Shown in pieces: positions 990 to 18,565 of a stretch of DNA of 20,000 nt. The DNA is from Chiloscyllium plagiosum (lineage: Eukaryota), in contig NC_057718.1 of NCBI RefSeq assembly GCF_004010195.1, positions 7,538,217 through 7,558,216 of the forward strand, read 5' to 3'. Every line of letters begins with the position of its first letter. The stretch's first letter is position 1. The notes below the pieces were generated by a model. That model saw only the letters and a list, made by a program, of their open reading frames with translations, did no database searches and had not been told where the DNA came from. Position numbers and translations under genes: made by a program.

Positions 990-1372
990 GAGTAAGCAGA
1001 TGAGAACTTGGGTTAACATCTCCTCTGAAAGACAGTGTGGCGATCCCTCTGTACTGCATTTTATTAGATTCCCTACAGTGTGGAAAGAGGCCCATTGGCC
1101 CAACAAGTCCACACCGACCCTCCAAAGACTTACGCACCTAAACTATGGGCAATTTAGCATGGCCACTTCACCTGGCCTGCACATTTTTGGACTGTGGGAG
1201 GAAACCAGAGTATCCGGAGGAAACCTATGCAGACACAGGGAGAATGTGCAAACTCCACACACACAGTCGCCCAATGCTGGAAATGAACCTGGGACCCTGG
1301 TACTGTGAGGCAGCAGTTCTAACCACTGAGCCACCGTGCCTGTAGTGGAGTGTCAGCTCTGATTTTTCAGTC
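990..1372 (-). mobile_element. Deu-domain-type SINE fragment split by the HE1 insertion (pieces about 990-1058 and 1341-1372)
   Basis: aacatctcctctgaaagacag...ccctctgtactgca continues after the HE1 copy as gtggagtgtcagctctgatt; family assignment from memory. Confidence 0.5.
1061..1340 (-). mobile_element. HE1-like tRNA-derived V-SINE, near full length with internal deletion
   Basis: Reverse complement starts ggcacggtggctcagtggttagaactgctgcctcacag (A box) then ggttcatttcc (B box) and ends tttccacactgtagggaatcta; homologous to 6094-6238, 15227-15520 and 18336-18565. Confidence 0.9.
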
Positions 1373-1590
1373 AGAATCATTGCTGCCAAATTCCACTATT
1401 CCATCTCGTGCCACACCGGGATTTCATCTCTCATTCCCTCTCACCAGGTAGATTACTTTTTAAAAAATGGTGCCTAGCCCAGATTCCCTGTAATTACTAT
1501 TTTCTGGGAATGAAGAGAGACTCCAGGAGGAGGGCACCAGGGCCAAAATTGCAGCTTTTTACAATTCCAGATTGACTTACAATTGTCAAC

Positions 1591-1749
1591 ATTTGGAGAT
1601 GCCGGTGCTGGACTGGGTTGACAAAGTTTAAAAATTGCACAACACCAGGTTATAGCCAACAGGTTTAATTGGAAGCACTAGCTTTCGGAGCGCTGCTCCT
1701 TCACCAGGTGGTTGGACTATAACCTGGTGTTGTGTGATTTTTAACTTTG
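1591..1749. mobile_element. HHR-bearing Penelope-like mini-element, family A: minus arm 1591-1710 and inverted plus arm from 1711
   Basis: Homologous to 7192-7390 and 9308-9359; exact 13-bp TSD tacaattgtcaac at 1578-1590 and 1750-1762. Confidence 0.8.
1676..1710 (-). ncRNA. Minimal type-I hammerhead ribozyme motif with A6>G core mutation
   Basis: Minus strand reads CAC-CUGGUGA-A-GGAGC-AGC-GCUCC-GAAA-G-CUA-GUG; stem I CAC/GUG, 5-bp stem II. Confidence 0.7.
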
Positions 1750-1864
1750 TACAATTGTCAACTGCAGCATTTTGTGTTGGTGTTCAAAGGAGCTATACCA
1801 CAAGTATATTTCCTCTTTCAACCTCTGCAAGTATCTAAACTATGTGCAATTATATTATCCAAAG

Positions 1865-2140
1865 TTGTCTGAGGAATCATGATGAGTTGCTGTGGCGCAT
1901 CTTGTAGATGGTACAGTCTGCTGTGACTGAGTGTTGGTGGTGGTGGGAGTGGATGTGGTGCCAATCAAGTGGGCTACTTTGTCCTGGATGGTGACAAGCT
2001 ATGAGAGTATTGTTGGAGCTGCCCCTATCCAGGCAAGTGGGGAGTATTCCATCACATTCCTGACTTGTGTCTTGTAGATGGTGGACAGGCTCTGGTGATT
2101 CAGGAGATGAGTTACTCTTTTCAGACACCCAGCTTCTGAT
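1865..2140 (-). mobile_element. CR1-group LINE ORF2 fragment, same family as 7448-8378
   Basis: Reverse complement aligns with about 7790-8070 (cctgtccaccatctacaag...gaatactccccacttgcct...gattggcaccacatcc). Confidence 0.85.
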
Positions 2141-2917
2141 ATGTTGCCACAGGAGTTATGGAGCTAAAATTTCTGGTCTGCCAGGCAGAATTTTGCACTG
2201 CGTTAACTCAACTGTTTTGTTTGTTTTTTTTTTCAAAATCGTTGCATAGCATGCTAGGTTCTTCCTGATTGAAACTTTGGGTGTGTCTTGGTGAAAGTTT
2301 TTTTGTTTTAGCGCAATGAGATGCTAGTGGTTACAGATATGTTACTAGTTGTGGTAGATACGGGTGTGAGGGAGAAGACTGGAATTTGAGGTGATAAATT
2401 AAGTTCAACACAATATTGAAACACTGATTCTCTTCACATGCCCAACCCTTGCCCAACACTCCATCCCCAATGTCTCAATGGATTAGGAAATCCTACAAAT
2501 GCCCGCTGATATAACCCCATGCATTGGCATTACTAAAGCAGTTTTATCTGCGCTGTATTAAAACACTGAGGCCTCATTTCAAGTTCTCCTCTGTTTCTCT
2601 CTCAACCAAAACCACACTGTTACAACCTAATGGACTCTGCTTTCTGTTTTGGCTTTCTTGAAAGAAATACCCCGTTTTGATGCCCACATCTGGGTTAAAA
2701 GTGCACAGAGTTTTCCATCGCCTTGTCCCCTCGAATTGTGAACTTATCCCACCCTTACCTTCTTTTGGTAGGTGCCTGCCTCTTTACCTGGGAATGTGCT
2801 CTTCCAGCTTTTCTGTTGCAGCGATGGGCAAGTGCAAACATATTGCCATATTTAATTTGTACTGATTCTGTGCTGTCATTTTGGCACTTTACCTGCTCTG
2901 GCCTTTAGTTTGAGACA

Positions 2918-3118
2918 ACTTGGAGAACTGCAGATACTGGAGAGTCCGAGACGATGAAAAGTGGTGCTGGACAAAGCACCACAGGTCAGGTGGCATCCGA
3001 GGAGCAGGGGAGTCAACGTCTCGGGTCGGAGGACTGAGGGAGGGAAAGGGGGCTGAGAAATAAATAGAGGGAGGGGAGTGAGGCTGGAGGAAAGGGGTGT
3101 TTGCAGGTGGGAGGTGAA
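2918..3118 (-). mobile_element. Penelope-like pLTR fragment, family B, with decayed HHR
   Basis: Reverse complement reads pyrimidine-rich tract, then ...gacccgagacgttgactcccctgctcctcggatgccacctgacctg...ccagcaccac...ccagtatctgcag, homologous to 17323-17449; CUGANGA and the left stem II arm are deleted and GAAAC reads GAGAC. Confidence 0.75.
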
Positions 3119-3129
3119 AGAGCATTCTA

Positions 3130-3315
3130 GAATAAATACTTAGCAGACCAGAGAATGTCAATCCAGAAGTCACTTTGGCAATTTAAGAAACCTGACTATG
3201 AACACTTCAACTCAATACCAACAAACAAGATCCCAACAGATTCACTAATGCTCTTTTCCACTCTTTCCTGATCTGACCAATGTGTGACTGTAGCCTTTTC
3301 TCTGAAGTGGCATTT
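3130..3315 (+). mobile_element. Highly decayed tRNA-derived SINE, probably the 440-582 family
   Basis: Residual ttcactaatg...cctgatctgacc..tgtgact...tctgaagtggc motifs; recalled similarity only. Confidence 0.35.
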
Positions 3316-3331
3316 GATGAGCACGTTACTT

Positions 3332-3476
3332 ATCGGGGGACATAAATTTAAGGTGAAGGGTGGAAGGTATAGGGGAGATGTCAGGGGTGGGTTCTTTACC
3401 CAGAGAGTGGTGGGGGCATGGAATGCGCTGCCCGTGGGAGTGGTAGAGTCGGAATCATTGGCGACCTTTAAGCGGC
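3332..3476 (+). mobile_element. CR1/HER1-like ORF2 C-terminal fragment
   Basis: GHKFKVKGGRYRGDVRGGFFTQRVVGAWNALP closely matches GHSFKLRDNRYRTDVRGSFFTQRVVGAWNALP at 8495-8800. Confidence 0.9.
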
Positions 3477-4059
3477 GTGACCAACAGACCAATGTGAGTA
3501 ACCCCCAATTTGAGACCTATGCCCCCCCCCCCCCTCCTTTACACCTGGAACAATTGACCAGAGAAGTCTGGTCATTGCTAACTGCAACAACGTGTCTGGC
3601 TCGTGAGTGAGGCGGTTTGCTCGAAAGATTCTGCAACAAACTCTCATATTTGGATTCACAAGACCAGCTTTTTAATGAAGGTGGGAAATGGATTCTTAAC
3701 TAGAATAGTTTTTTCTTAAATAAAACCCAACGATTTGTGAAGGTGACAGTTTGGTAAGGAGTACCATTCTGAACTTCTCTGGACGATTAACACTTTTGTT
3801 TACAGTGTTTGTCTCTTTGTTTCTGTGCTAACCGCATTTAATGTGGAGTCTGCACTTTAACGACAACACTGTAATGAGCCAGTGGGGCTTGGTTTAAAGG
3901 TGACTTTGGTCACCAAGATGAGAATCGTTCTCTGTTTGACCCCTGTACACTGAAAGAGAAATATCTCCACATACTTTACAGGGGTGATTATCAAACAGTT
4001 TATACAGTGTTCCCTCTTGGGGATGCTGGAATATTTCAGGGAAAGTTTGTTGAAGGAGG

Positions 4060-4190
4060 GTACATTTTACAGAGTATTCTAACGGTAGACCATGAGATAG
4101 CCAGAGGGATTTCGGAAGGCAATTCTAAAGGTTTAGGCCCAGGTAGCTGAAGGCAGGGCCATCAATGATTGAAAGATTAAAATCCGGGTT
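4060..4190 (-). mobile_element. L2-like LINE fragment
   Basis: ggcaattctaaaggtttaggcccaggtagctgaaggcagggcc resembles the reverse strand of the L2 ORF2 C-terminus (AFSYLGPKPLELP); from memory. Confidence 0.5.
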
Positions 4191-4307
4191 TAGTGAGCAT
4201 TATAACATTCACAAGTGTTCACCTTAAGTGATGTACAAAATGTCATGGCACCTTGATCCTTCGTTAGTCCTTTTGCTATGGTGTACCATCAATAAAGAAT
4301 GATTTTG

Positions 4308-4380
4308 AAGCTCTCTCAAAGAGCTAGCACAGGCACAATGGAATGAATGGCCTCATTCTGTGCCACCTCATCCTGTGAGT
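4308..4380 (+). mobile_element. CR1-like 3' tail fragment
   Basis: gcacaggcacaatggaatgaatggcctcattctgtgc tail motif. Confidence 0.55.
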
Positions 4381-4450
4381 ACAAGGTGCAGTCAAGCCAC
4401 TCTGTTAATTTTCTTTTTAAACACGACATGTTACATGAGTCCGTGCTGCA

Positions 4451-4862
4451 CTTCAGCATTTCTTGGGAAAAAGACCCATTTGTCAATGTCGGTGTCTTTT
4501 ATTCAACAAGGCAATTGACAAGATAAAGGTTTGTATGGAGTGAATGGATTAGTTGGCAAATGGACTCTATTTGCACAAGTTAATGATGACTGACAGTTTA
4601 CATTTTTAACCAAATCAGGTTGGAACTCATTTAGTCAAGGCATTGTCTTGAGAAATGGACTGGAGAAGGGTGTCACTTATTCTGTTCAGTTGAGTTAAAA
4701 CAAGTAAGTGTTCAAAGATCAGGACTCTGTGTTATGTATGCAGCTTCCAGTATGTTGCACACTGTGTGGTCTGTCTAGCAGTCTGAAGTTGTCGGTGTAA
4801 TTCTTTGCACCCCCAGAATTCTGTAACTTTGACAAAATGTCATTTTTCAGCAATACTCAAGT
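4451..4862 (-). mobile_element. Penelope-like fragment, family D, with short inverted terminal piece at about 4825-4862
   Basis: Aligns with 17530-17880 and 18250-18330 (gttggcaa.tggactct, gatgactgacagtt, gtcaaggcattg, tgtcac.ta.t, gagttaaa); 4828-4862 is an inverted copy of about 4451-4487. Confidence 0.7.
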
Positions 4863-5084
4863 AGATATTCTTTGTGAAAGAGACACTGAATCTGCTACCA
4901 CCTTACCAGGGCTAACGACGGCTTGCAGCTGGGACTGCTGTGAACCCTTGGAGGTGCAAAGCAGAAATGTTCTCCATTATGAATCGGCCTGCGCTGACCC
5001 AGCTGGGGTGGGGGGGGCACATGGATCTGAATCTGGACCTTCTGGCTCAGGGGGAACACCAACCAATTGTGGCACAAGACCCCC

Positions 5085-5225
5085 AAACATTTCACTTTAC
5101 ATAACAACTTTCACAATGTCAAGAGGTGGAGTACCACAGCCAGTGCAGTACTGTTTTCAGAGTGTTGCCATGTAGCAAATTAATTCACCAATCTGCACAC
5201 AGCAAACTTCTAGAAAACGCAGTGA
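5085..5225 (-). mobile_element. Deu-SINE/L2-type 3' region, minus copy
   Basis: caatctgcacacagcaaac and actttacataacaactttcac are diverged reverse complements of the 5241-5378 segment. Confidence 0.55.
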
Positions 5226-5240
5226 CGTCCTGGTTTATTT

Positions 5241-5378
5241 TATTGCTGTTTGTGGGCGCTCTCTGTGCACACATTGGCTGCCATGTTTCCTAGACTACAG
5301 ATGCCTGCATTTAAAAAGGCCTTCATTGCCTGTAAAGCATCAGCAGCTGTGAATGGTGATATATAAATGCAGGTCTGT
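5241..5378 (+). mobile_element. Deu-SINE/L2-type 3' region, plus copy
   Basis: attgctgtttgtggg...tgtgcacacattggctgccatgtttccta...ttcattgcctgtaaagc...gtgaa...atataaatgcag. Confidence 0.65.
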
Positions 5379-5478
5379 CGGTGAGACATTTGTGCTGAGT
5401 GGCAAAAAACTGTTGACAGATCAGTTATCCCCGTTGACAATTTTCGGGGGGGGTTTAATTGTAATTGAGCAGATCTTT

Positions 5479-5508
5479 GCCACTGACGTTGCAGCCACTG
5501 ACGTTGCA
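5479..5508. repeat. Perfect 15-bp tandem duplication (gccactgacgttgca x2)
   Basis: Directly visible at 5479-5493 and 5494-5508. Confidence 0.95.
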
Positions 5509-6093
5509 ATCCGTGAATGTTATAATTGAGAAGGGAATTGTCAATCTAATTTTAAAACAAGCTGACAGAAAATCAACAGCTGGAAGGTCGTGTTTTCTCC
5601 AGCGCAGTTTTAGTGACACGACGAAGCCCAGTGCAAATGGATGAAGTGTCCTTGCAGGGAATGTGGTTACACAGTCCAGTCAATTATCTGGTGAAGTAAT
5701 AGCTGCGTAGTGAGAGCATGTAGTGTTTTTTAATGGAGATGGAGACCACAGCTAATGGCAGCACTGAGAGGTTGAAGCATTATAATCCATAAGTGCACTT
5801 GTTCTTGACAGAGCTACCGTTCTGATCTCTTGAATTGTTTCCAGGATTCTGAATTATCTGGAAACCCCTGTGCAACTGTAAGAGGGGACAGCACATTAGG
5901 AGGCTATTCAGCCCATCTCACCCATGCCAGCCCTTGTGCATTGGTTCCATTGCGCTGACATTTCCCTGTTGTCCTCCTAAGTGTTTCCCTTCGATTACCT
6001 CTCTGATTCCCGTCAGAAAGAGATGATTAGCTCACCTTCCACAATCCTACAGCCAATTCATTACAGTTCATAGCAACTTCTTGAAGAGGAAAT

Positions 6094-6238
6094 GGCACGG
6101 TGGCTCAGTGGTTGGTACTGCTGCCTCACAGCGCCAGGGATCCAGGTTTGATTCCAGCCTCCGGTGACTCCCTGTGTGGAGTTTATGCATTCTCTCTGTA
6201 TCTTCGTGGGCTTTCTCCAGGTGCTCCAGTTTCCTCCT
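6094..6238 (+). mobile_element. HE1-like SINE, 3'-truncated
   Basis: ggcacggtggctcagtggttggtactgctgcctcacagcgccagggatccaggtttgattcc tRNA-like head with A and B boxes. Confidence 0.9.
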
Positions 6239-6459
6239 TGTTGTGTAGTCCAATGTACCAATAAATGTTGCTGATGTGACTCTGACATTAATAAGAGTGG
6301 ATGAGAGAAGCCACTAGACGAGGAGAAGACCCTGTGCTGGGAGCTGTAAGAGTTACTTCTGATGTGTAGATGTCAATGAGAATTTTACATCGTTGTAGAG
6401 CAAGAGTGGAAGAGCTTAACTCAAGTATAAGGAGCCAATGGCTTTGTAGAGTGGATGTC

Positions 6460-6690
6460 ACAGAGTCATATCCAACTTGCCCACTCTGCTTAGTTTTCAC
6501 AATCAATCTAGTCCCATTTGCCTGCATTTGGTCCTTGTCCCATCCATGTACCTGTCTAAATGTTTCTTAAATGTTAAAATTGTACTGACTTCCGCCACTA
6601 CATCTGGCAGCCGTTCCAGAGACTCCACCCTCTGTGGGAAACAATTGCCCCTCTGGGCTCGTTTATATCTCTCCCTTTCTCCTTAAATGT
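6460..6690 (-). mobile_element. CR1/HER1-like 3' end
   Basis: tagtcccatttgcctgcatttgg...catccatgtacctgtctaaatgtttctt is homologous to 17885-18043. Confidence 0.8.
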
Positions 6691-7191
6691 ATGTATAGAG
6701 ACCCACAGCCCAGGGACCATTACAAATAATATAATTATGTCAGTAGCCCCATTAATTACAGTCCAGCTGATGGTAAAACTGGACAAATCTGACTCCAGAA
6801 TGAAAGCTGGCTTGATAATAACCTGTTTAATTTTCGCAATTAGTTATCATGGTTGGTTAGTCACTGAAACTTACACATATGCAGCTGCAGATGTTCTCTA
6901 ACAATAGAACATAAGCTTATTACATAAAGTTAGAAATTTTGAAAAAGCCTAACCTATATATATGTTAAAAGACCGTTTGAATTTAATACAGGCATCAAAA
7001 CAAAGCTTCAACCTGTTTCCCAGCAGCATGTTTTATAGTGACTCAGTCCCAGAATAATATCAGTCCTCTCTCAGCTTTGTAAGTCTTTATATCAGTCATG
7101 CCTTGAACCGAAGAGTCTTCCTCTCCGAGTCCATTAGCTTGAAGTTCTTTCAATTCTGATAGCCTAAACTTTCTCTGTTCTAACAACTCCA

Positions 7192-7390
7192 AAGTTAAGA
7201 ATCACACAATGCCAGGATATAGTCCAACAGGTTTATTTGGAAGCTCTAGCTTTCGGAGCGCCGCTCCTTCATCAGGAGCAGTGCTTCGAAAGCTAGTGGT
7301 TCAAAATAAACCTATTGGACTATAACTTGACGCTGTGTGATTTTTTAACTTTGTACACCCCAGTCCAACACCAGCATCTCCAAATCATGA
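7192..7390. mobile_element. HHR-bearing Penelope-like mini-element, family A: minus arm 7192-7276 and plus arm 7274-7390
   Basis: Long inverted repeat; TSD ctaacaactcca (7180-7191) vs ctaaaaactcca (7391-7402), 1 mismatch in 12. Confidence 0.8.
7243..7279 (-). ncRNA. Minimal type-I hammerhead ribozyme, intact core
   Basis: Minus strand reads GCUC-CUGAUGA-A-GGAGC-GGC-GCUCC-GAAA-G-CUA^GAGC; 4-bp stem I, 5-bp stem II, palindromic AGCU in place of helix III. Confidence 0.8.
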
Positions 7391-7447
7391 CTAAAAACTC
7401 CAGGATTTCTGTGTAAGCTTTCCTGGCTTGGGAACTGCATAGACTAC

Positions 7448-8378
7448 ACGACCTTCCCTCCATCATAAGGTCAGCATTGGGGATGTTTATCGATGGTTGC
7501 ACAATGTTCCGCATCATTCGTGACTCCTCTAGATACTGAGGCAGTCCATGTTCAAATGCAACAAGATCTGGACAACATCCTGGCTTGGGCTGACAAGTGG
7601 CAAGTAACAGTCACACCATGCAAATGCTAGGCTGTGACCATCACCAATAAGAGACAATCTAACCACCACCCCTTGGCATTCAATGGTGTTGACATCACTG
7701 AATACTCCACTATCAACATCCTAGAGGTCACTATTGACCAGAAACTCAACTGGACTCGCCACATAAAAACAATGGCTACAAGAGCATGTCAGAAACTAGG
7801 AATGCTGCTGTGAATAACTCACCTTCTGACTCCCCAAAGCCTGTCCACTATCTACAAGGCACAAGTCAGTAATGTGATGAAATACTCCCCACTTGCCTTA
7901 ATGGGTACAGCCCCAACAACACTCGAGCTTGACACCATCTAGGTCAAAGCAGCCTGCTTGATTGGCCCCACATCTACAAACATCCACCCCTTCCACCACC
8001 AACGCTCAGTAGCAGCAGTGTGTACCATCTCTAAGATGCACTGCAGAAATTCACCAAAGATCCTCAGACAGCAGCTTCTAAACCCATGACCACTACCATC
8101 TGGATGGACAAGGGCAGCAGATACATGGGAATACCACCACCTTCCACCCAACTCACCATCCTGACTTGTAAATATATCACCGTTCCTTCAGTGTCGCTGG
8201 GTCAGAATCCTGGAATTCTCTCCCTAAGGGCATTGTGGTCAACCCACAGCACATGGGCTGCAATGGTTGAAGAAGGCAGTTCACCCCCAACTTCTGAGGG
8301 GGCAACTAGGGACAGGGCAATAAATGCTGGCCCAGCCAGCAATGCCAACGTCCCACAAAATAAATAATAATAAAAAAA
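7448..8378 (+). mobile_element. 5'-truncated CR1-group LINE (RT C-terminus and 3' tail), pseudogenised
   Basis: Translates, with stops and frameshifts, to MFIDGCT (decayed FADD)...MQQDLDNILAWADKWQV...ILEVTIDQKLNWTRHI...STIYKAQV; ends in an A-rich tail taaataataataaaaaaa. Confidence 0.9.
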
Positions 8379-8412
8379 GACTAAAAACCACTGAAGGAGC
8401 TGGCTCCCTGGA

Positions 8413-9308
8413 ATTAGAACATAACAGCGCAGTACAGGTCCTTCAACCCTCAACTTTGTGCTGACATGTGAAACCAAGCTGAAGTCCATCTAACCTACAC
8501 TATTCCATTTTCATTCATATGTTTATCCAATGACCATTTAAATACCCTTAAAGTTGGTGAGTCTACTACTGTTGCAGGCAGTGCATTCCATGCCCCTACT
8601 ACTCTCTGAGTAAAGAAACTACCTCTGACATCTGTCCTATATCTATTATCCCTCAGTTTAAAGCTATGTCCCCTTGTGCTAGCCATCATCATCCGAGGAA
8701 AAAGGCTCTCCTTGTCCACCCTATCTAACCCTCTGATTATCTTATATGTCTCAATTAAGTCACCTCTCAACCTTTTTCTCTCTAACGAAAACAGCCTCAA
8801 GTCCTTTCCTCATAAGACCTTGCCCCCATACCAGACAACATCCTAGTACATCTCCTCTGAACCCTTTCCAAACTTCCATATCCTTCCTATAATGCAGTGA
8901 TCAGAACTGTACGCATTACTCCAAGAGTGGCTGCACCAGCGTTTTGTACAGTTGCAGCATGACCTCATGGCTCCGAAACGCAATCCCTCTACCAATAAAA
9001 TCTAACACCCCGTATGCCTTCTTAACAACCCTATCAACCCGGGTGGCAACGTTCAGGGATCTATGTATCTGGACATCGAGATCTCTCTGCTCATCTGCAC
9101 TACCAAGAGTCTTACCATCAGCCCAGTACTCTGCATTCCTGTTGCACCTTCCAAAGTGAATCACCTCACACTTTTCTGCATTAAACTCCATTTGCCACCT
9201 CTCAGCCCAGCTCTGCAGCTTATCTATGTCCCTTGTAACCTGCAACATCCTTTAGCACTATCCACAACTCTACCAACTTTAATATCATCCGCAAATTTAC
9301 TAACCCAT
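8413..9308 (-). mobile_element. 5'-truncated CR1/HER1-like LINE, ORF2 RT C-terminus to 3' UTR
   Basis: WVSKFADD near 9285-9307; ORFs 8916-9248 (DIDKLQSWAERWQMEFNAEKCEVIHFGR) and 8495-8800 (SLERKRLRGDLIETYKI...FFTQRVV..WNALP) are typical CR1 ORF2. Confidence 0.95.
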
Positions 9309-9359
9309 GTGATTTTTAACTTTGTACACCCCAGTCCAACACCGGCATCTCCAAATCAT
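9308..9359 (+). mobile_element. 3' fragment of family A HHR mini-element
   Basis: tgtgatttttaactttgtacaccccagtccaacaccggcatctccaaatcat is nearly identical to 7336-7388. Confidence 0.85.
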
Positions 9360-9424
9360 AAATAAAGTGGGGTGTGTGTATTTATTGCGAAAATGTACTG
9401 CATGAATCTAGTCATTAATCCATG

Positions 9425-9465
9425 GAGCTCTGCTGAAGAGTCATCTCGACTCGAAACGTTAGCTT
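9425..9465 (+). ncRNA. Minimal hammerhead motif with A6>C core change
   Basis: GAGCU-CUGCUGA-A-GAGUC-AUCUC-GACUC-GAAA-C-GUU^AGCUU; 5-bp stem I with one G.U, 5-bp stem II. Confidence 0.7.
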
Positions 9466-9560
9466 GCTCTCTCTCCTTGGATGCTGCCCGACCCGCAGTG
9501 ATCTCCAGCATTTTTTTGTTTTCAATACAGATTCCAGTATGTGCAGCAATTTGCTCCTAT
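9425..9560 (+). mobile_element. HHR-bearing mini-element, family B variant
   Basis: HHR at the 5' end, then gatgctgcccgacccgcagtgatctccagca...ttccagtatgtgcag, shared with 17360-17440. Confidence 0.7.
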
Positions 9561-9974
9561 GGACACCAATTATCTGACCAGCTGGATAACCAAAAGAGAA
9601 AATAAATAATTTTTGTGTTGATAAAGCATCCTTCACGACCTTGATGTGTTTTAGCGGCCAATGAGAAGTGCAGCTGCACAATGTAAAAATGCACTTTCAA
9701 GTTTAAGCATTGACATTCAGCATTGCCTTCCAATGGACAGAGATTCTTTGCAAACCAGCCTGGGATGAAGAAGTGAAGACTATATGAGGAGTGTCCATGG
9801 TGTATTCTTGGAGAGCATTTGGCTTAAGCTTTGTACGAATGCACATCAAAATACTTCACAGTCTACAAGAAAGAACTGGGGCGAGTCACTTTATATTATC
9901 ACTTGAAAGCTTAAGCAATGGAATTGATAGAAACAAGAAATGAAAGAATGAAACTGGCAAATAGAAAATAAGCC

Positions 9975-10400
9975 ATTCGACAACCAGGCAGAAAACTAGC
10001 CACCAGGATACATGAACATCAACTAGCCACAAAAAGACATGACCCTCTCTCACTAGTATCCTTACAGATGAGGAAGGACACCACTTCGACTGGGACAATA
10101 CGTCCATCCTAGGACAAGCCAAACAGAGAATTCCTAGAAGCATGGCATTGCAACCAGAACTCTATCAACAAACGCATTGACTTGGATCCCACCTACCACC
10201 CCCTGAGAAAAAGAACAGGAAATGCCATCACCAATACAGGAAATGACATCACCAACCCAAAGAAACCTAAGCACATAAACAGAAAGCAGGCCATTCACCA
10301 GTGCTTCAGCCGGGGGCTCGCTGATGATGTTACGTAGTATGGTGATGAAACGTCTGAAAACGAAATTTCCAGCTCAGTGAGCAAACTTACATCCAGAAAA
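9975..10400 (+). mobile_element. Penelope-like retroelement 3' fragment (family C): GIY-YIG endonuclease remnant and pLTR
   Basis: Translates with frameshifts to IRQPGRKLATRIHEHQLATKRHDPLSLVS...EEGHHFDWDNTSILGQAKQR..EFLEAWH.NQNSINKRIDLDP, carrying the Penelope endonuclease motifs (Y)IGQT.R.L..RI.EH, HFDW and LEA..N. Confidence 0.9.
10318..10357 (+). ncRNA. Minimal type-I hammerhead ribozyme in Penelope pLTR, intact core
   Basis: UCG-CUGAUGA-U-GUUAC-GUAGUAUG-GUGAU-GAAA-C-GUC^UGA; canonical GUC site and ACGU palindrome, but stems weakened by G.U pairs. Confidence 0.75.
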
Positions 10401-10735
10401 TCAACCAGATGCTTGAGAGGTTAGGAGCTAAAGTCGTGGAATTCTGCATTGATGTGAGGACTATAAAGAGCATAGTTGGAGGATAGGTAGTTTGTCAAAT
10501 TTCCATTGAGCTTCCTTTGTACGCTAGAAGGCTGAGGGCAGAAAGGGCCTTCTAGAAGGAAAGTAGAGAATTGAAAAGACAAGCAGCTCGAGAAAACCAT
10601 GTCACGAGCAATGCATACAGTATATTAATGAAAAGTATAAGTAAATCATTATTTTACCTGGAAGAAGTATTAGGAACCTTGATGGTGATTAGAAAGAGGT
10701 AAAAAGCAGGGATTCTGCCTCCTGTGCTTGTGTGG

Positions 10736-10800
10736 AGCTAATACTTTCATCAAATAAACCTGTTGGATTATAACCTGGTGTTGTGATTTTTTTTTTTTAA
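10736..10800 (+). mobile_element. Fragment of family A HHR mini-element
   Basis: agcta...aaataaacctgttggattataacctggtgttgtgattttt matches about 7291-7348. Confidence 0.75.
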
Positions 10801-10853
10801 TTGTCTGGAGAAAGGCTACAGGAAGGGACTTGGCATTTACCATGATTAAATAA

Positions 10854-11000
10854 AAGACAAAAAAACTACAGATACTGGAATCCAAAGTAGACAGGCCAGA
10901 GACTGGAAGAACGCAGCAAACCAGGCAGCATCAGGAGGTGGAGAAATCAACATTTCAAGGTGTAGCGCTTGGGTTCCACCCGAAACATCTCCACCTCCTG
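10854..11000. mobile_element. Family B mini-element: minus arm 10854-10968 and inverted plus arm 10971-11000
   Basis: Plus arm gggt-tcc-accc-gaaac (HHR stem II and GAAAC), then tctccacctcctgat, the reverse complement of atcaggaggtggaga; TSD atgattaaataa (10842-10853) vs ataattaaataa (11001-11012). Confidence 0.75.
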
Positions 11001-11024
11001 ATAATTAAATAATATGTCAGGGTC

Positions 11025-11130
11025 TAGGGAGGGAATTGTTCCTTTTGGAATACTGGGATGAGGGGGAAAATGTATTTGGTGACATCACATTGCAGGTGGT
11101 GGAAATGACAGAAGACAATCCATTGAATAG
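11025..11130 (-). mobile_element. Penelope-like ORF fragment (RT-endonuclease linker region)
   Basis: IQWIVFCHFHHLQCDVTKYIFP resembles the I..II.RHF..LQ.D....IFP linker of vertebrate Penelope elements; from memory. Confidence 0.55.
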
Positions 11131-12107
11131 TGATTCTGTGCTCAATTAATACTATTGCCATGCTCTCTGCTTCTATATGCACATATCCTTTCTGGTTCTG
11201 AATTATTCCCAATCCTTTTTTTTACTACTCTTGGTATTTATAAATTTTAAAATGAACTTTTAAATTCACATTTATGTGCACTGCCATTCTTCTGTTATCT
11301 GCTATGTTTGTCTTTTTTTTTAGCCCTTTCCCCTCTGAACTTTATGTAGTCTGCTTAGTTCTCCTTTGTATTAACAGCATGGTATATATCTAATAGAGTC
11401 AGATGAAGCAGGAAGAGAGGCTGCTATCTCTTTTGTTAACTAGTGGCTTTGGGTCGCCCATTGTCTTTCTTTGCTCTCCACTCCCCTGGTCTTGTGTGTA
11501 CGAGGTTTGGGAGAAAGGTTTCTGATGCTGATGGGTCATCCTCCTGGAGTGGGAGCATTAGAAACCTTTTTTTGTGTAGAATATTTCCAACTGTGAGTGT
11601 GCACTTCTCAGTGAAATCTGTTGCAAAAAAGTCGAAGCTGTTTGTTAACTGGGTACCGAGTCCTTCAGAATCGAATGAATGTACTTGTTTTTTACTCTCT
11701 GTTCTTGTCAAGCTACCCTGGGATTAGTGATTTTTTTGCTTACGCGTGGAAGTGAGATTTTCCATACCAGTGCTACAAACGCATGTACACGTGTCTCACT
11801 TCGAGTTATTTACATTGCTGCTGCTGTGCTGCTAAATTCCAGTTTGATTGTCAACACCTCTTCCCTTCTCTCTCCTCTTCCCATGTTTTTTTTATCAGAA
11901 AGTGTTTGCCTTGAAGTTTGGATCACATTTAACTTTCATTCCGATGACAGCGTCCAAGCGCTTTTGCAGGTTTTACAGCTCAGTTCTGGATTATTTCACG
12001 TCTGATACATTTTTGATAAAGATGCAAGTCTGAATTTTGCCCCGGGAGCTACGACTGAAAGGGCAGGTGCTAGGGGCTGAAATTGGAGAAATGCAAAATG
12101 CTCAGAT

Positions 12108-12722
12108 CCAGGTTCAGCAGGTGATAGGGAAGGCAAGTGAAATATTGGCCTTTCTTTCTTTCAAAGGGAACAGATTGTGAAAATAGAAAGCTCTTGCTAA
12201 ACTAGACAAGGGACTAGTCAGACTGCAGCTGGAATATTGTGACCAGTTTTGGCTTCCTTATCCAAGGGAAGATATATTGGTATTTGAGAAGGTTCACTAG
12301 GGTAATAGAAGGTATGAGGAGAAGTTGAGTAGGTTGGGCCCGTACGTATTGGAGTTTAGGAGGATGAGAGGAGACCTTATTGAAAGAAACAAAATTCTTA
12401 GGATCTTGACAGGTAAAGATGTTTCCCCCGTGAGAGAGTCGAAGACCAGAGGGTATCATCGCAGAGTAAGGATCAGATAAGGAGGAATTTCCTTTCCCAA
12501 ATGGGAGTAAGTCTGTGGAATTCTTGATGGCAGAAGGTTTTAAAGGCTGGGTCATTAAGAGTATTCAGGGCTGAAATGGACAGATTTTTCATCAGGAATG
12601 GAACCAAGGGATATGGGGAGAAGGCAGGAGAATTGAGGAATATCAGATCAGCCATGATCTCATTTAGTGGCAGAATATACTCAATGGGCTGAATGGTCAG
12701 TTTCTGCTCCTATATCTTTATA
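12108..12722 (+). mobile_element. CR1/HER1-like LINE 3' fragment
   Basis: Encodes LYKGLVRLQLEYCDQFWLPY-like and LEFRRMRGDLIE motifs; tail gggctgaatggtcagtttctgctcctatatct. Confidence 0.9.
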
Positions 12723-13460
12723 ATTTTTTAAAATAATAGTCACCTAACTGGAAATTAATGAGTTGATTTCTGCTGGAGCTATCTGGGATGTCTTGGGTCG
12801 ATTCACTGATCGGTCTTGCTGGTTTTAGTCCAGGATACAATGTGGGGAAGAATGTCCATATGAAACCTTGGGTAGAAGCTAGTCTCAGTAAAATAGGTTA
12901 TATTTGTTCCATGTTACTCAGCAGCTATTGCATTTGAGGTGGCCTCTTGAGGGTCATCATGCTGAGCATAAGGGTAGGTTCACATTAATACTTCAACTAT
13001 GTGCTGTTAATATTGAAGCACTGTGTGCTATCTAGTCAACATGTGGAGAACTCATTGACTCCTCCCATAAGTAGTCCCGTTGATCATGACGGGCAGGTCT
13101 TGTAATGTCAGTTCAGGTACTAACTGCCTAATGCAGCAGTTTTATTTTATTTTGAGAGGTATAAGATGTCTTTTTCTGGTGATCAATGTAATAGCTGTCT
13201 TTGTATTCTGATGTAAATTTGTCAGGATGAAATATGAGAGGTTAGTGAGTTGCTACAAGTTCTTCCTTCAGTGTAAAGAGCAACATTGCTGAATTTGGAA
13301 TTCATAGAATCGTACAATACAGGCCTTTTGGCCCATTGAGAACTGCAGAGTTTTATTCCTTTACTGTGCCTCTGGTCTTATAAGAAAGCTTCTTCTGAAT
13401 AAAAGATTAAAGCACGCATAGATTACACAGTCAATGAAACAATGCATTAACCCACATGAC

Positions 13461-14333
13461 TGTGAAAGGACTGTATCTTTTTATTTTTTTCGTTTTGTAG
13501 GGGCTGAAATGAAAGAGCTGTTTTTTAAAACTAGTATTTAAAAGTGGCTGTATTTTTGAAAGCAAGTAAGCTGCCAGGGATTGTGTGAACAATGGCTGAA
13601 GCAAGCAGCCATCCAAGTTTAATTGAGAGCCCAGGGTGATATTGACCCCAAGGTGTTAGCTGGTGTCATTTTGCAATGGTACAAATTGATGTTGATTTGG
13701 TCTATGGACTAGTGATCAGTTGACCTGCCAACCGACTGTATAATTAATTCTTGGGTAACTAAACAATTTGGAGTTGAAAGCATGTGTAGGAAGAAGGAAA
13801 AGTTCTTCCCTGGCTTAGGAGCAGTCTCTCTGTTCTCCGCAGTTCAAAACTCATTGTAAACCTGACACAAAACAGTTTATTTTTGCAGCAGTTGTAACCA
13901 GTGATTTTGTCTGGATAAGGCAGAGACCTTTCATGAGAGATCTGGCCACCTTGTGTCTCTTTCCAAACTGTGGAGGTATCTAGAGAAAGATGACTGAAAC
14001 AAGGTGCTGGCCCCAGAAGAGTCATGAAGATCATGTCAACAACTGAATTCTCTTTTCAGTTTTCACCCTTCCTATGTGTTATGGGTGGTTTATAAGGGGG
14101 TCAGCTTTTTAATTAATTGTGTTTTATTCTGACAGTTTAACTGTAGTTAGAGTCCGGTTTTTGCAATAAATAGTATTGTTCAGTCCAAATACTTGGATGA
14201 TACTTTTCATCAACCTTGGTGTGAAAATTTGGTGAATTAGGGAAGTTTACATATTTTTAAACATGTTTAACTTTTGTTATTTTAGGAACAGAGGGGTTAG
14301 CTTTCTGTTGTGTTACTGAAGTGAATTGTAACA
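13461..14333 (+). mobile_element. Putative solo LTR (about 870 bp)
   Basis: Termini TGTGAAA...TGTAACA, internal AATAAA near 14165, flanked by atga-c and g-atga; no coding signal. Confidence 0.45.
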
Positions 14334-14525
14334 GATGAGATGTTACTGATAGCTTTTCTTCCTTTTAGCCAGTTGACGTCCCTGTATTGTGCCAGGAGAT
14401 CAGATGCACTTGTGCAAAGGAGGAAGAGAGTATTCACTTTGATGTGGTGGTATTTAGGAACTCTGATTTTTAATCTCTTGTCACTGCTGGTGGTATGAAT
14501 ATGCAGTGTTAGTGTTGATGAATTC

Positions 14526-14611
14526 CGGATGAAGGGCTTTTGCCTATTTTCCTGCTCCTCGGATGCTGCCTGACCTGCTGTGCTTTTCCAGAACCACTCT
14601 GACCTAAACCC
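14526..14611 (+). mobile_element. Family B HHR mini-element with inactivated ribozyme
   Basis: cggatga-a-gggc-tttt-gcc then deletion of GAAAC-GUC, then cctgctcctcggatgctgcc; exact 11-bp TSD ttgatgaattc at 14515-14525 and 14612-14622. Confidence 0.8.
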
Positions 14612-15226
14612 TTGATGAATTCTGGGTCAAGGAAAACACTTAATGGACTCAGAGTCATGAATCTTCCGCTGTGCTGGACACAAGTTGAAATGGATTCTGG
14701 TTGGGAGCTGGGACGTGATGTAGCTGTGGTCTAAAGGGCACAGTCTTTGCATTCCCATGACCCACTGTCCTCCTGGGCATTTTAGATGGGAGTTTAGTGC
14801 CCTTGAGTACTGGTTGACTTGCCAGTGCTGTGTACCACTTGGATCTGGATTGTAATTTTCTTACGGTTCGTCCAGAGCGGAAAAGCTTTATTCACTTCTG
14901 CCTGATGTGACTTTGCAATGGTATAAGTTATGCCAGCTCACCAAATCATTTATGAGGGTTGTGCATCTTTCAAATGAAGACAGCCAAAATTATCAAATGG
15001 ATTCAGATGAAGGAAGATTTGTTGAGCCATTCCAGTCCCATCCTTTTCCATTATTATTTTTCAACATTGGCCAGACTTAGGTTCCTTTTTTTATTATTAC
15101 TAAGGAAAGGAATCAAGGAGACAGGCTCTCCATTGCATACCACAATGTCAGAGTGACAGCACTGGTGTGTCATGAGATGCTGAAAGACTTGTGTGTAACT
15201 TGAAGCTTCAGTGAAGAGTAATGTGA

Positions 15227-15520
15227 GTGGCTCAGTGGTTAGCCACTGCTGCCTCACACCACCAGGGAGACGGGTTCCATTCCACCCTCAGGTGACTGTC
15301 TGTGTGTGGAGCTTCCACATTATGCTCGTGCCTGTGTGGATTTGCTCTGGTTTCCTCCCAAAGTCTAAAGATGTGCTGGTTTGGGTGGATTGGCCACGCT
15401 AAATTGTCAAGGGAAGTGCAGTCTACGTGGATTAGCTGTGGGAAATGCAGGGTTACAGGGTAGGGAGGTGGGTCTGGGAGGCATGCAGTTTGAAGTGTTG
15501 GTGTGGATTTGACGGGCTGG
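15227..15520 (+). mobile_element. HE1-like SINE, diverged
   Basis: gtggctcagtggttagccactgctgcctcac head and ttcctcccaaagtctaaagatgtgc...ggattggccacgctaaattg core. Confidence 0.85.
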
Positions 15521-15534
15521 AGCGATTCTGTGAA

Positions 15535-15870
15535 GACATCTCTCCTCTTCTGTTCAAAGTGGCTTCTGCCTCACTTTTTATTCCTTCCATCTGAACTTGT
15601 CCCCTCTGATTCGAGACTCCCCAACCAGGTGAACCCCCATCCGACCTGTGCACATCCTGCCATCTGTGTTTGGATCATTTGTAAGTCTTCAGTGAGATCG
15701 CCACCTCTCATTCGTCGAAACTCATGAGATAGGCCCGCGTTTTCCAAACTACTTTCCCAGAGGGCAGCCTGGCTATCCTCGTGTCAAGTCTAGACAAATC
15801 TCATGACCCTTCCACAGGCAATAAACTCCTTCCAAAGGTAAGGAGACCAAAACTGTACACTGTCCTATAG
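15535..15870 (-). mobile_element. Old CR1-like fragment
   Basis: gagatcgccacctctcatt (RGDL region on the reverse strand) and ccaaaactgtacactg (LxYCVQFW region on the reverse strand). Confidence 0.6.
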
Positions 15871-16255
15871 TTTCCATATAAGGTTGAGCCCCTCTCCTCC
15901 ATAACAACAACATTAGTACGCTCAATTACTGGCCAGACTTCGGCTTCCCTTTTGTTTTTATTGCTAGGGAAAGGGATCAAGTGAAATAATGTAAAATCCA
16001 TTATTATCTGCAGCGATTTTTCAGGTTTCTGGAGTGCCTGGAAAACCGTTTGGTATTTATTCCATGGTTGCTAGCTTTGTCATGTCGCCAAGGCGGTAAT
16101 TTTGGAGTTGGCACTGACACAGCAGCACTTGGGAGACCCCACAGGTTTCCAATGGAGTGAAGTCTGTTGCTGGAAAACAGACCGAGAAAGCACTCCAGCA
16201 ATCCATTTGGATGAGACACCTTTGTTTCTAGCCATGGATACAGCAGGCAGACTCA

Positions 16256-16640
16256 TGCAGTCATAGAGATGTACAGCACAGAAACAGACCCTTTGGTCCA
16301 ACCCGTCCATGCCAACCAGATCCTATGCCCTCTAGTTCTGAACTCCCCCACCCCAGGGAAAAGACTTTGTCTATTTACCCTATCCATGCCCCTCATGATT
16401 TTATAAACCTCTATAAGGTCACCCCTCTGCCTCTGACACTCAAAGGAAAACAGCCCAGCCTATCTAGCCTCTATAGCTCAAATCCTCCAACCCTAGCAAC
16501 ATCCTTATAAATCTTTTCTGAACCCTTTCAAGTTTCACAACATCCTTCTGACAGGACAAAATTGCATGCAATATTCCAAAAGTGGCCTAACTAATGTCCT
16601 GTACAGCCGCAACATGACTTCCTAACTCCTGTATTCAAGA
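16256..16640 (-). mobile_element. CR1/HER1-like 3' fragment with internal deletion
   Basis: Tail gtcatagagatgtacagcacagaaacagaccc; ataaacctctataaggtcacccctc is RGDLIEVYK on the reverse strand; homologous to 8700-8970. Confidence 0.9.
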
Positions 16641-16704
16641 CTTGTCCACCCTTGAGGCGGCACTATACTCAACTGATGACTTTGCTTGAACAACTTTAAA
16701 TCCA

Positions 16705-17165
16705 CTGAGAGAGGAGAGAAGCTGGAATTGTTCTCCTTTTAATCAGAAATGGTTCAGTGGAAAGATCTAATAAATTTCAGCGTTGGCATTTCCAGACATT
16801 TTAAGGGATCTGGGAAACCGACCCGTAGGAAGAAACGTTTTTCCCTTTAACACCATTTTGTTAGTATGATCTGAAAGGCTGATGGAAGCATTTTCAGTGA
16901 TCCCTGTTTGAAAAAAGATTTTGAAACTTGATTGGAAGAACATTTTAAGGGCAGTGGGCTAAGGGATAATGGTCCTTCCACATCTGGGTCTTTCCCACCA
17001 TTTACAAAGATCTACAGAGACCTCGTGAGGTGCAATGTCTGGAAGGTAGGGAATAGAGGGAAACAGAACATATGCAGGCAGATGGGATGTATTTAGAATG
17101 GCATCATGGTTAGTATAGACATGGTGGGCCGAAGGGCCTGTTCCTGTCCTGTGTTTTATACTTGT
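16705..17165 (+). mobile_element. Decayed CR1-like fragments ending in a 3' tail
   Basis: gagaagctggaattgttctcc (EKLELFS) start and tail atggtgggccgaagggcctgttcctg; may be two separate pieces. Confidence 0.55.
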
Positions 17166-17322
17166 GTGCATTGGATGAGATGGTCGCTGTGTTATTGTGA
17201 AGACATGGAAGGTACGACATCCATTCACCTTTTTTTTTTGGATGTTTCTATTTGCTCCCCTGGAAAGGTGGTGTTAGTCTTTCGTTGCCAATTCTCGTTC
17301 TTGCTGGACTCATCATATACCT

Positions 17323-17449
17323 GATTCCTCATGAAGGGCTTGTGCCCGAAATGTCGATTCTCCTGCTCCTCGGATACTGCCTGACCTTCTGTGCTTTTCC
17401 AGCACCACTCTCTTAGACTCTGATCTCCAGCATCTGCAGTCCTCACTTT
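17323..17449 (+). mobile_element. Family B HHR mini-element
   Basis: AUUC-CUCAUGA-A-GGGC-UUGU-GCCC-GAAA-U-GUC-GAUU (G5>C, C15.2>U); TSD tcatcatatacct (17310-17322) vs tcatcacatacct (17449-17461). Confidence 0.8.
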
Positions 17450-17884
17450 CATCACATACCTTGACCTATCTTACCCAATCGCATCCCTTTTCCACCCCAG
17501 TAACTAATCAATTAATGGGGAGTTGTTTGGTAGCAGTATGACTGAGAAAGGACACATTATTTTTGAAGCTTTTCATCTTGCACTCATTAGGACAATTTTG
17601 CAAGAATACCAATGAAAGGGAAAATCAATATTTATGCTGTATGGGAGGACATCATGGATTGGTTGGCAAGTCGACTCTGATACGTAAAGGCATTGTCATG
17701 GAGAATGCAGTAGTTGATGATGAGTGACAGTTAACCGCCAGGCTTTTTTTGGATTTCAAACCAGGCAGATTGACTCTGACTCTGATCGGTCAGGGCATTA
17801 GTCTGGGAAATGAACCAGTGAATAGTTGTCACCTAATTTTTTGAGTTAAACCAGACACTGTGTGTGTACATGCTCTTTCTTAGA

Positions 17885-18043: not shown

Positions 18044-18335
18044 TCTTTGTTAGATTAAGTAGCTACAGCGATAGGACAGCTAACGTAAACTTTCCTTAGG
18101 CCTCCAAGAAAACAAAAGAAATCTTTTAAAGTCTTCCCTTCCGTTATCCATAGTTTTAGATTGTGTAAGAATGCGAAAGGTTAGGCTTTATACTCTGAAA
18201 CTCCCACAATTAGCTCAACTCCCAGCATTTGCAAACTCTTGTTGGTTGCTTTCCATCTGCAAGGACTGGTCCCTTTGTATCGTAATGGGTATTGCTTTCA
18301 AGACCTGCAAATGTGTCACACTGCAAGCCTGATGC

Positions 18336-18565
18336 TTGGGTTTCCTTCGGATGCTCTGTTTTCCTCCCACAGTTCAAAGATGTGCAGGTTAGAGTGGATT
18401 GACCATGATAAATTGCCTATAGCGTTCAGGGATGTGCAGGCTCGATGGGTGAGGAAATGTAGGGTTACGGAAAATAGGCTGGGGCCTGGGTGGGATGCTC
18501 TTCAGAGGGTCAGTGTGGACACTATGGGTCGAATGGCCTCTTTCCGCACTGTAGGGATTCTATAA
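18336..18565 (+). mobile_element. HE1-like SINE, 5'-truncated
   Basis: ttcctcccacagttcaaagatgtgcagg core and tail tttccgcactgtagggattctat; reverse complement of 1061-1220. Confidence 0.9.

Follow-up and report, generated by a model that had tools for sequence, protein, structure and literature searches.

The window examined here is a stretch of 20,000 nucleotides from Chiloscyllium plagiosum (contig NC_057718.1 of assembly GCF_004010195.1, positions 7,538,217 to 7,558,216 of the forward strand). It consists of repeat-rich non-coding sequence and, with a probability that we put at roughly 0.8, harbours a dozen or so 3'-terminal fragments, all dead, of Penelope-like elements (PLEs) belonging to five lineages, designated families A to E. 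The hammerhead ribozyme core that marks these elements is intact in only two of the window copies. An initial annotation of this DNA had listed ten hammerhead sites and had read them as members of a separate, very high-copy class of short non-autonomous repeats mobilised by PLE proteins. We prefer to read the short copies as run-off by-products of autonomous elements, dead on arrival, rather than as a self-propagating family.

Penelope-like fragments in the window

Family A first appears in the window as a foldback copy, in which two arms of the same insertion lie head to head. The unit at 1591-1716 (-) runs from 9 nt upstream of the CUGANGA box of the hammerhead to the tailed 3' end (-9 to +120 relative to the box, by nhmmer) and carries a hammerhead at 1679-1707 (-) in which A6 has become G. 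The shorter, inverted second arm (1711-1749, +) ends at the tail-less 3' site, and the insertion is bracketed by an exact 13-nt target-site duplication (1578-1590 and 1750-1762). Another family A foldback pairs an inverted arm, which reaches the tail-less site and holds an intact hammerhead (7187-7281, -; hammerhead at 7247-7275), with a direct arm that begins within helix II, lacks the CUGAUGA box and runs to the tailed 3' end (7274-7393, +). Only helix II and GAAAGCUA are kept of the ribozyme in this second arm (7274-7298, +). Family A is further represented by the last ~50 nt, tail included, of a 5'-truncated copy (9308-9360, +) and by an internal fragment of the unit (10751-10790, +).

Family B is seen as a short unit running to the tail-less 3' site (14522-14600, +), with a hammerhead (14522-14544) hit by an internal deletion and an 11-nt duplication at 14515-14525 and 14612-14622, and as a unit with a tailed 3' end (17319-17450, +), in which the hammerhead at 17328-17355 (+) has G5 replaced by C and the 11-nt duplication contains one mismatch (17312-17322 and 17451-17461). 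A degraded B-like PLE 3' fragment at 2924-3094 (-) (nhmmer, model positions 496-673, E 6e-20) retains a hammerhead remnant at ~3004-3035. The single family C unit (9425-9558, +) starts at the 5' strand of helix I and has a hammerhead at 9430-9460 (+) with A6 changed to C. Family D is a 5'-truncated element (9966-10409, +) comprising the end of a broken GIY-YIG frame and an intact hammerhead (10321-10354, +), and ends near the short 3' site. Family E forms a foldback (10854-11003) with a long arm (-) extending to ~10964 and a short arm (+) that holds a remnant consisting of helix II and GAAAC (10971-10986); its sole intact relative lies at positions 2779-2805 of another genomic locus, L073. That the short copies are non-coding and have target duplications of their own, as the initial annotation stated, is borne out by the one 13-nt and two 11-nt repeats given above.

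Hammerhead motifs

To locate these motifs we used a minimal-hammerhead descriptor, modelled on the PLE minimal hammerhead of Cervera and de la Pena 2014 (PMC4209133; cited from excerpts throughout, as are PMC8557442, PMC7229834 and the preprint 10.64898/2026.07.22.740005). The descriptor requires, in order, CUGANGA, zero or one unpaired nucleotide, a helix II with four or more base pairs and a loop of 3-9 nt, GAA, an A-NN-U stretch in which NN is pairable, and finally H. Scanning both strands of the window gave the two intact hammerheads, in families A and D, and the three motifs with a single core mismatch described above. In 200 dinucleotide-preserving shuffles, the mean number of matches was 0.00 for the exact descriptor and 0.04 (maximum 1) with up to one mismatch allowed.

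Nine of the ten sites listed in the initial annotation are confirmed, five as descriptor matches and four as remnants belonging to the same repeat families. The tenth, 17560-17596 (-), is taken as a chance occurrence: the sequence of its box is CUAAUGA, a helix II cannot be drawn for it, and no other copy was found in a 309-kb sample made up of the window and further genomic loci (L numbers). The box at 9425-9465 had been read as CUGAAGA, but the family consensus from three aligned copies is CUGAUGA-A-GAGUC..GACUC, and the window copy of family C is therefore a mutated one. Searches of the window with Rfam found no hammerhead family (type I, II, III, HH9 or HH10) at gathering score or at E values up to 10, and no curated RNA family at its thresholds. 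The hammerhead miss is what we would expect of motifs without a helix III.

Ribozyme architecture of families A to E

Families were defined from searches of the window's own genome (3.56 Gb in 101,977 contigs) and from alignments. Five are seen, rather than the four or so of the initial annotation, which had the helix II arms right. In family A the box is followed by A, GGAGC-loop-GCUCC, GAA, AGCU and A. Helix II is GGGC/GCCC in family B, with ACGU and C after it; GAGUC/GACUC in family C, with ACGU and U and a helix I of 5 bp; GUUACC/GGUGAC in the consensus of family D, with ACGU and C; and GGGU/ACCC in family E, with ACGU, where the only intact copy is that at L073.

All of these share the published architecture of the PLE minimal hammerhead, as had been claimed from the window alone. 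The core CUGANGA ... GAAA ... UH is intact in the family consensus motifs, an unpaired nucleotide after A9 is needed in all 50 intact motifs of the 309-kb sample, and G10.1-C11.1 closes helix II in five out of five consensus motifs. Helix I is 3-5 bp long and no stable helix III is present; instead the cleavage site is preceded by a palindrome, ACGU (B, C, D and E) or AGCU (A), which could allow two molecules to pair as a dimer. The covariation of helix II reported in the initial annotation is likewise upheld, with three of the four shared pair positions differing on both sides between families (10.2-11.2 is G-C, A-U or U-A; 10.4-11.4 is G-C, C-G, U-A or A-U). The table of pairs was drawn up by hand from the family consensus sequences, MAFFT alignments across families having left the helix II strands in separate columns, and variation within families, being neutral decay after insertion, was not counted as evidence. 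Features such as the unpaired nucleotide, G10.1-C11.1 and paired changes in helix II are listed as arguments against chance occurrence in PMC4209133.

Link to Penelope-like reading frames

In the window, the family D hammerhead directly follows the broken reading frame, whose stop codon (10335-10337) falls inside the loop of helix II. None of 20 window reading frames gave a Pfam match, the D copy here being too broken. Longer family D copies give weak matches to GIY-YIG (E 0.003-0.005, below the Pfam cut-off; L040, L035 and L091), and at L052 an RVT_1 match above the cut-off (E 3.6e-9) precedes, on the same strand, the match to the endonuclease tail. At that locus, family D combines reverse transcriptase (RT) and GIY-YIG in one reading direction, whereas for A and B the endonuclease part alone is seen. 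The last 74 residues of the D frame have 60,025 first-look candidates in the genome.

At least eight sampled copies of family B continue from the hammerhead, via a C-rich 3' untranslated region (3'UTR) of ~200 nt, into a reading frame. In one of these loci, L038, a GIY-YIG match above the Pfam cut-off (E 4.8e-5) lies ~150 nt upstream of the unit, and the B endonuclease resembles that of family D (E 4e-12). An RVT_1 match at L075 (E 2e-5, below cut-off) was considered as a possible family B RT and set aside, as it looks like part of a neighbouring long interspersed nuclear element (LINE).

For family A, ~420 nt of sequence upstream of the unit is common to three copies, and at L049 this stretch is preceded by a CA microsatellite and by a frame tail similar to the tail of the B endonuclease (E 3e-9). 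A 940-nt query that begins in this frame tail, spans the 3'UTR and hammerhead and stops at the 3' end was matched over its full length (1 to 937-940) at seven places, the query locus included. Other matches in the genome span 1-900 or start at 58, 85, 104, 142, 199, 230 or 317, and many of those listed start at 442-445, just past the microsatellite, about 12 of them with a separate piece of the frame tail just upstream on the same strand. The microsatellite, which is of variable length, sits between the endonuclease stop codon and the 3'UTR and splits most genome matches in two.

Since the units are contiguous with reading frames in longer copies, those of families A, B and D are the 3' ends of endonuclease-bearing PLEs, seen here in partial copies. 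The claim that A and B exist only as short units of 85-200 bp is contradicted by the full-length A matches and by the B copies that reach the GIY-YIG frame.

Three of 30 loci picked for the D frame (L035, L049 and L091) also hold a long family A copy within ~700 nt; new PLE insertions seem to go into existing PLE copies or next to them.

Insertion anatomy

End points were analysed in 53 family B insertions lying outside the search targets, of which 44 are single copies and nine are foldbacks with arms paired head to head. The 3' ends of the single copies fall into two clusters, at model positions 635-653 (20 of 44) and 668-681 (another 20), with the remaining four ending earlier. In each of the five lineages the hammerhead, of minimal type I form, lies ~75-90 nt upstream of a first 3' end, and a second is 30-40 nt further on. 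Among B foldbacks, targeted loci included, in which both arms run to a 3' end, the tail is usually present on just one of the two. The same two clusters and the same tail rule are found in families A and D. Target duplications of ~9-16 nt flank the copies.

Genome-wide, at the first 100 places of one A and one B 20-mer, minus/plus pairs are mostly 101-123 nt apart, a spacing from which we conclude that two units are joined at their 5' ends. We also considered whether B units might be the upstream pseudo-long terminal repeats of full-length copies, but the 3' flank continued into shared internal sequence in none of 89 B units, and this reading was therefore rejected.

These features match what has been described for PLEs elsewhere. 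Heavy 5' truncation, a neighbouring inverted copy that is itself 5'-truncated, and a tail of 30-40 nt that is often confined to one end are reported for PLE insertions in Craig 2021 (PMC8557442), and two internal RT start sites, together with cutting and extension of both DNA strands, account for the tail in Frangieh 2024 (PMC11167929).

The family A foldback at 7187-7393 would, if transcribed, give a near-perfect RNA hairpin of ~85 bp. Plant microRNA-precursor models match this hairpin at 7215-7328 below threshold (E 6e-8 to 0.02), and the tens of thousands of A hairpins in the genome could be a source of small RNAs. In family A foldbacks (L001-L030) the CpG of helix II appears as TpG in both arms, in each case on the (+) strand (~12 TG to 0 CA, by eye), which keeps G-U pairing in the plus-strand hairpin; the sample is query-biased and the TpG may be inherited rather than selected.

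Copy number

The very high copy number suggested in the initial annotation is confirmed, at roughly 10^5-10^6 arms. An exact mid-unit 20-mer occurs 54,915 times in the genome for family A and 99,016 times for family B, and exact patterns for the intact hammerhead occur 16,625 (A) and 26,595 (B) times; reversed-pattern controls gave 0 in each case. At loci not chosen for the family, the exact 20-mer is kept in three of 19 A arms and nine of 36 B arms, which suggests totals of ~3.5 x 10^5 A arms and ~4 x 10^5 B arms, rough figures given that the sample lies near other PLE copies.

Origin of the short units

The short unit is most likely the stretch between the 5' end of the element's RNA and its internal RT start sites. 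We propose that the PLE protein, with its RT and GIY-YIG endonuclease, would prime on nicked DNA (target-primed reverse transcription), and that copying would start at either of two internal RNA sites, ~75-90 or 110-125 nt downstream of the box, and proceed towards the RNA 5' end. Priming on both strands would give foldbacks with one tailed arm, and the cDNAs would in some cases be truncated at random and in others run off at a defined 5' end of the RNA, immediately before helix I. In vitro, synthesis by an Anolis PLE proceeds from internal RNA sites towards the 5' end, and in that element the RNA start and the RT entry sites are near one another, at the RNA's head (PMC11167929). The hammerhead, in line with proposals in these papers, would process the element's RNA as a dimer or with the help of protein. 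Published minimal hammerheads cleave poorly in vitro (PMC4209133) or require the protein of the element (PMC11167929).

If the short copies were a family in their own right, they might be expected to form a lineage. In a tree of 22 long and 46 short B copies (68 rows, 95 shared columns), the long/short label changes 22 times for the 22 long rows, which is the maximum, against a mean of 18.8 after shuffling. Long and short copies are therefore intermixed and, within the resolution of the tree, the short ones have no diagnostic lineage. In family A, both of the subtypes that follow the GAAAGCUA motif (with or without two extra nucleotides) occur in long copies.

Several points weigh against our reading. 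The B tree is of low resolution and limited power, and the loci sampled were picked by likeness to the window copies and lie next to other PLE copies, which makes the proportions drawn from them rough. No RT was found beside the B endonuclease, either by Pfam on fragments at L076 or by blastp against the D RT (E 2.0), and no long, frame-bearing copy was seen among the three copies of family C or the two of family E. A further point lies in the 5' ends of the units: 15 of the 44 single B copies start at model 548-558, within 11 nt of the box (which begins at 559), where ~0.7 would be expected if starts were evenly spread, and plain 5' truncation does not predict a pile-up upstream of the hammerhead.

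The other single B copies start at model 2-536 (16 of 44) or inside the unit (13 of 44). At nucleotide level the clustered B copies begin 2-12 nt, and A units 5-17 nt, upstream of the box; C units begin at helix I, whilst family D has no 5'-end peak. This boundary is distinct from the ribozyme cleavage site, which lies 28 nt further 3' and at which three copies start. The helix I boundary could mark where the PLE RNA begins; in family B it bears what we take to be an initiator-like (Inr-like) word.

Alternative explanations

The alternative that survives best, though we consider it unlikely, is that the dominant retrocopy in at least three PLE lineages is a discrete ~90-130-nt unit that reaches from the helix I 5' strand to one of the two internal RT start sites and owes its form not to random truncation but to a short RNA template of its own, such as a processed leader or a transcript from near the promoter.

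We regard as somewhat less probable still the proposal of the initial annotation, namely that the short hammerhead-to-tail units are a self-propagating non-autonomous class, akin to short interspersed nuclear elements (SINEs) or to retrozymes, with their own transcripts and mobilised in trans by PLE proteins. The sharp 5' boundary at helix I in families A, B and C is what such a class would show, as are the very high copy number, the shared palindrome centre of 20 of 30 family A foldbacks, and the occurrence of C and E as short units only; non-autonomous PLE derivatives are, moreover, on record for other animals and for Chlamys elements (10.64898/2026.07.22.740005; PMC8557442). The units of A, B and D are, however, contiguous with PLE frames, and the short copies lack the upstream 3'UTR, the candidate promoter; no promoter inside the unit came to light, although no search was aimed at one. 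The initial annotation had looked to the length distribution to decide the matter, with a sharp peak of short copies favouring a non-autonomous family and a continuous taper into PLE frames speaking against it. The sharp peak is present, but truncation points run continuously into the reading frames. A discrete 5' end is thus shared with SINEs, whereas a lineage with diagnostic substitutions is not, long and short B copies being mixed on the tree and both A subtypes being present in long copies.

Membership of the retrozymes fails on layout, since these are defined by tandems and B tandems are nearly absent: there are nine exact head-to-tail B junctions in the genome against the 26,595 intact B motifs, and none in the window. 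The contiguity with frames, the intermixed tree and the rarity of tandems together leave a separate SINE- or retrozyme-like class unsupported. The one tandem pair in the 309-kb sample, at L045, is part of a compound B array (500-900) that comprises a partial unit and an inverted arm together with two direct units joined head to tail; this junction is among the nine in the genome.

It is very improbable that the family A foldbacks are miniature inverted-repeat transposable elements, that is, DNA-transposon miniatures with terminal inverted repeats and target duplications in which the hammerhead-like box is incidental. This would account for a near-perfect ~85-bp hairpin flanked by duplications, and for Rfam matches on the hairpin coming only from plant microRNA precursor models below threshold, but it is largely refuted by the structure of the copies. 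The arms are unequal in a fixed way, with a 30-nt tail on one only; the outer end of the other arm varies, as does the length of the duplication (~9-13 nt); ten of 30 copies have a different junction; single-arm copies exist, as do copies running into the 3'UTR and frame; and family B follows the same arm rule. Finally, the idea that the sites merely fit a loose hammerhead pattern by chance, which does describe 17560-17596, is already refuted for the other nine sites by the two to five matches observed against 0.00-0.04 in shuffles and by the fixed place of the motif in repeats whose intact copies number tens of thousands, the reversed-pattern controls giving 0, and has next to no likelihood as a general account.

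Other repeats in the window

Four copies of a separate interspersed repeat, unrelated to the hammerhead units, lie at 1176-1340 (-), 6094-6237 (+), 15245-15400 (+) and 18333-18562 (+); this repeat looks like a tRNA-related SINE. Fragments of another retroelement frame, presumably LINE-like, are present at 7400-8350 (+) and, repeated in inverted orientation, at 1866-2117 (-). Pfam found nothing in the pieces tried.

Significance

PLE hammerheads, their solitary and inverted-pair occurrence and the anatomy of PLE insertions are already in print, and families A to E are further members of this known kind. In titles and abstract openings of the literature on shark hammerhead ribozymes, Penelope and Chondrichthyes transposable elements, we found no paper on these particular families. 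What they show is a large animal genome in which sequence-intact PLE hammerheads number tens of thousands and PLE tail units several hundred thousand. Short units of this kind are easily left unclassified, and the finding therefore bears on repeat annotation. The end-point statistics (two 3' ends 30-40 nt apart, one tailed arm and a sharp boundary at helix I) are also consistent with the model, drawn from in-vitro work, in which the RT of PLEs initiates internally and priming occurs on two strands. Were the units to derive from a dedicated short RNA, a hammerhead plus an RT-entry module would constitute a minimal mobile unit with several hundred thousand copies: a ribozyme-headed, SINE-like class that would serve as a natural read-out of PLE RNA starts.

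Comparison with known systems

The motifs described here resemble the minimal hammerheads of other PLEs, as set out in PMC4209133, in having a CUGANGA and GAAA core, G10.1-C11.1, a palindrome in place of helix III and a short helix I. They resemble them too in their organisation, with several consensus families in a genome and motifs that are mostly solitary but in some cases form close pairs on opposite strands. They differ from the Schistosoma families in the length of helix II, which is 4-6 bp here and 7-8 bp there. The 43,220 exactly intact A and B motifs compare with ~9,000 in Xenopus and 4,000 in coelacanth, figures obtained with a different descriptor (PMC4209133).

As insertions, the copies have the strong 5' truncation, the inverted copy on the 5' side and the one-ended 30-40-nt tail of canonical PLEs, together with two 3' ends that fit internal RT starts and a hammerhead ~75-120 nt away from them (PMC8557442; PMC11167929). 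A GIY-YIG frame, as in canonical PLEs, is found for A, B and D, and RT for D only. The frame of the Anolis element begins within the hammerhead (PMC11167929), whereas here it ends in the hammerhead (D) or ~150-520 nt upstream (B and A). In the excerpts of PMC8557442 and PMC11167929 we found no mention of a clustering of 5' ends at helix I such as is seen here.

Animal hammerhead repeats have already been described as non-autonomous PLE derivatives (PMC7229834; 10.64898/2026.07.22.740005), the preprint covering, in its excerpts, one cartilaginous-fish genome. With these metazoan retrozymes, which are of the non-long terminal repeat type, our families share the form of short non-coding hammerhead repeats related to PLE termini, and solitary monomers. 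Retrozymes, however, are head-to-tail arrays in which two hammerheads release a circular RNA of ~170-400 nt, an arrangement without counterpart in the window, and carry classical type I hammerheads, whilst the motifs here are minimal ones.

Like SINEs whose 3' tail is that of an autonomous partner, the units are discrete and short, with an identical 3' end, target duplications and copy numbers of at least 10^5. Unlike SINEs, they show no tRNA-, 7SL- or 5S-like head and no lineage of their own, and the unit in its entirety is a piece of the partner.

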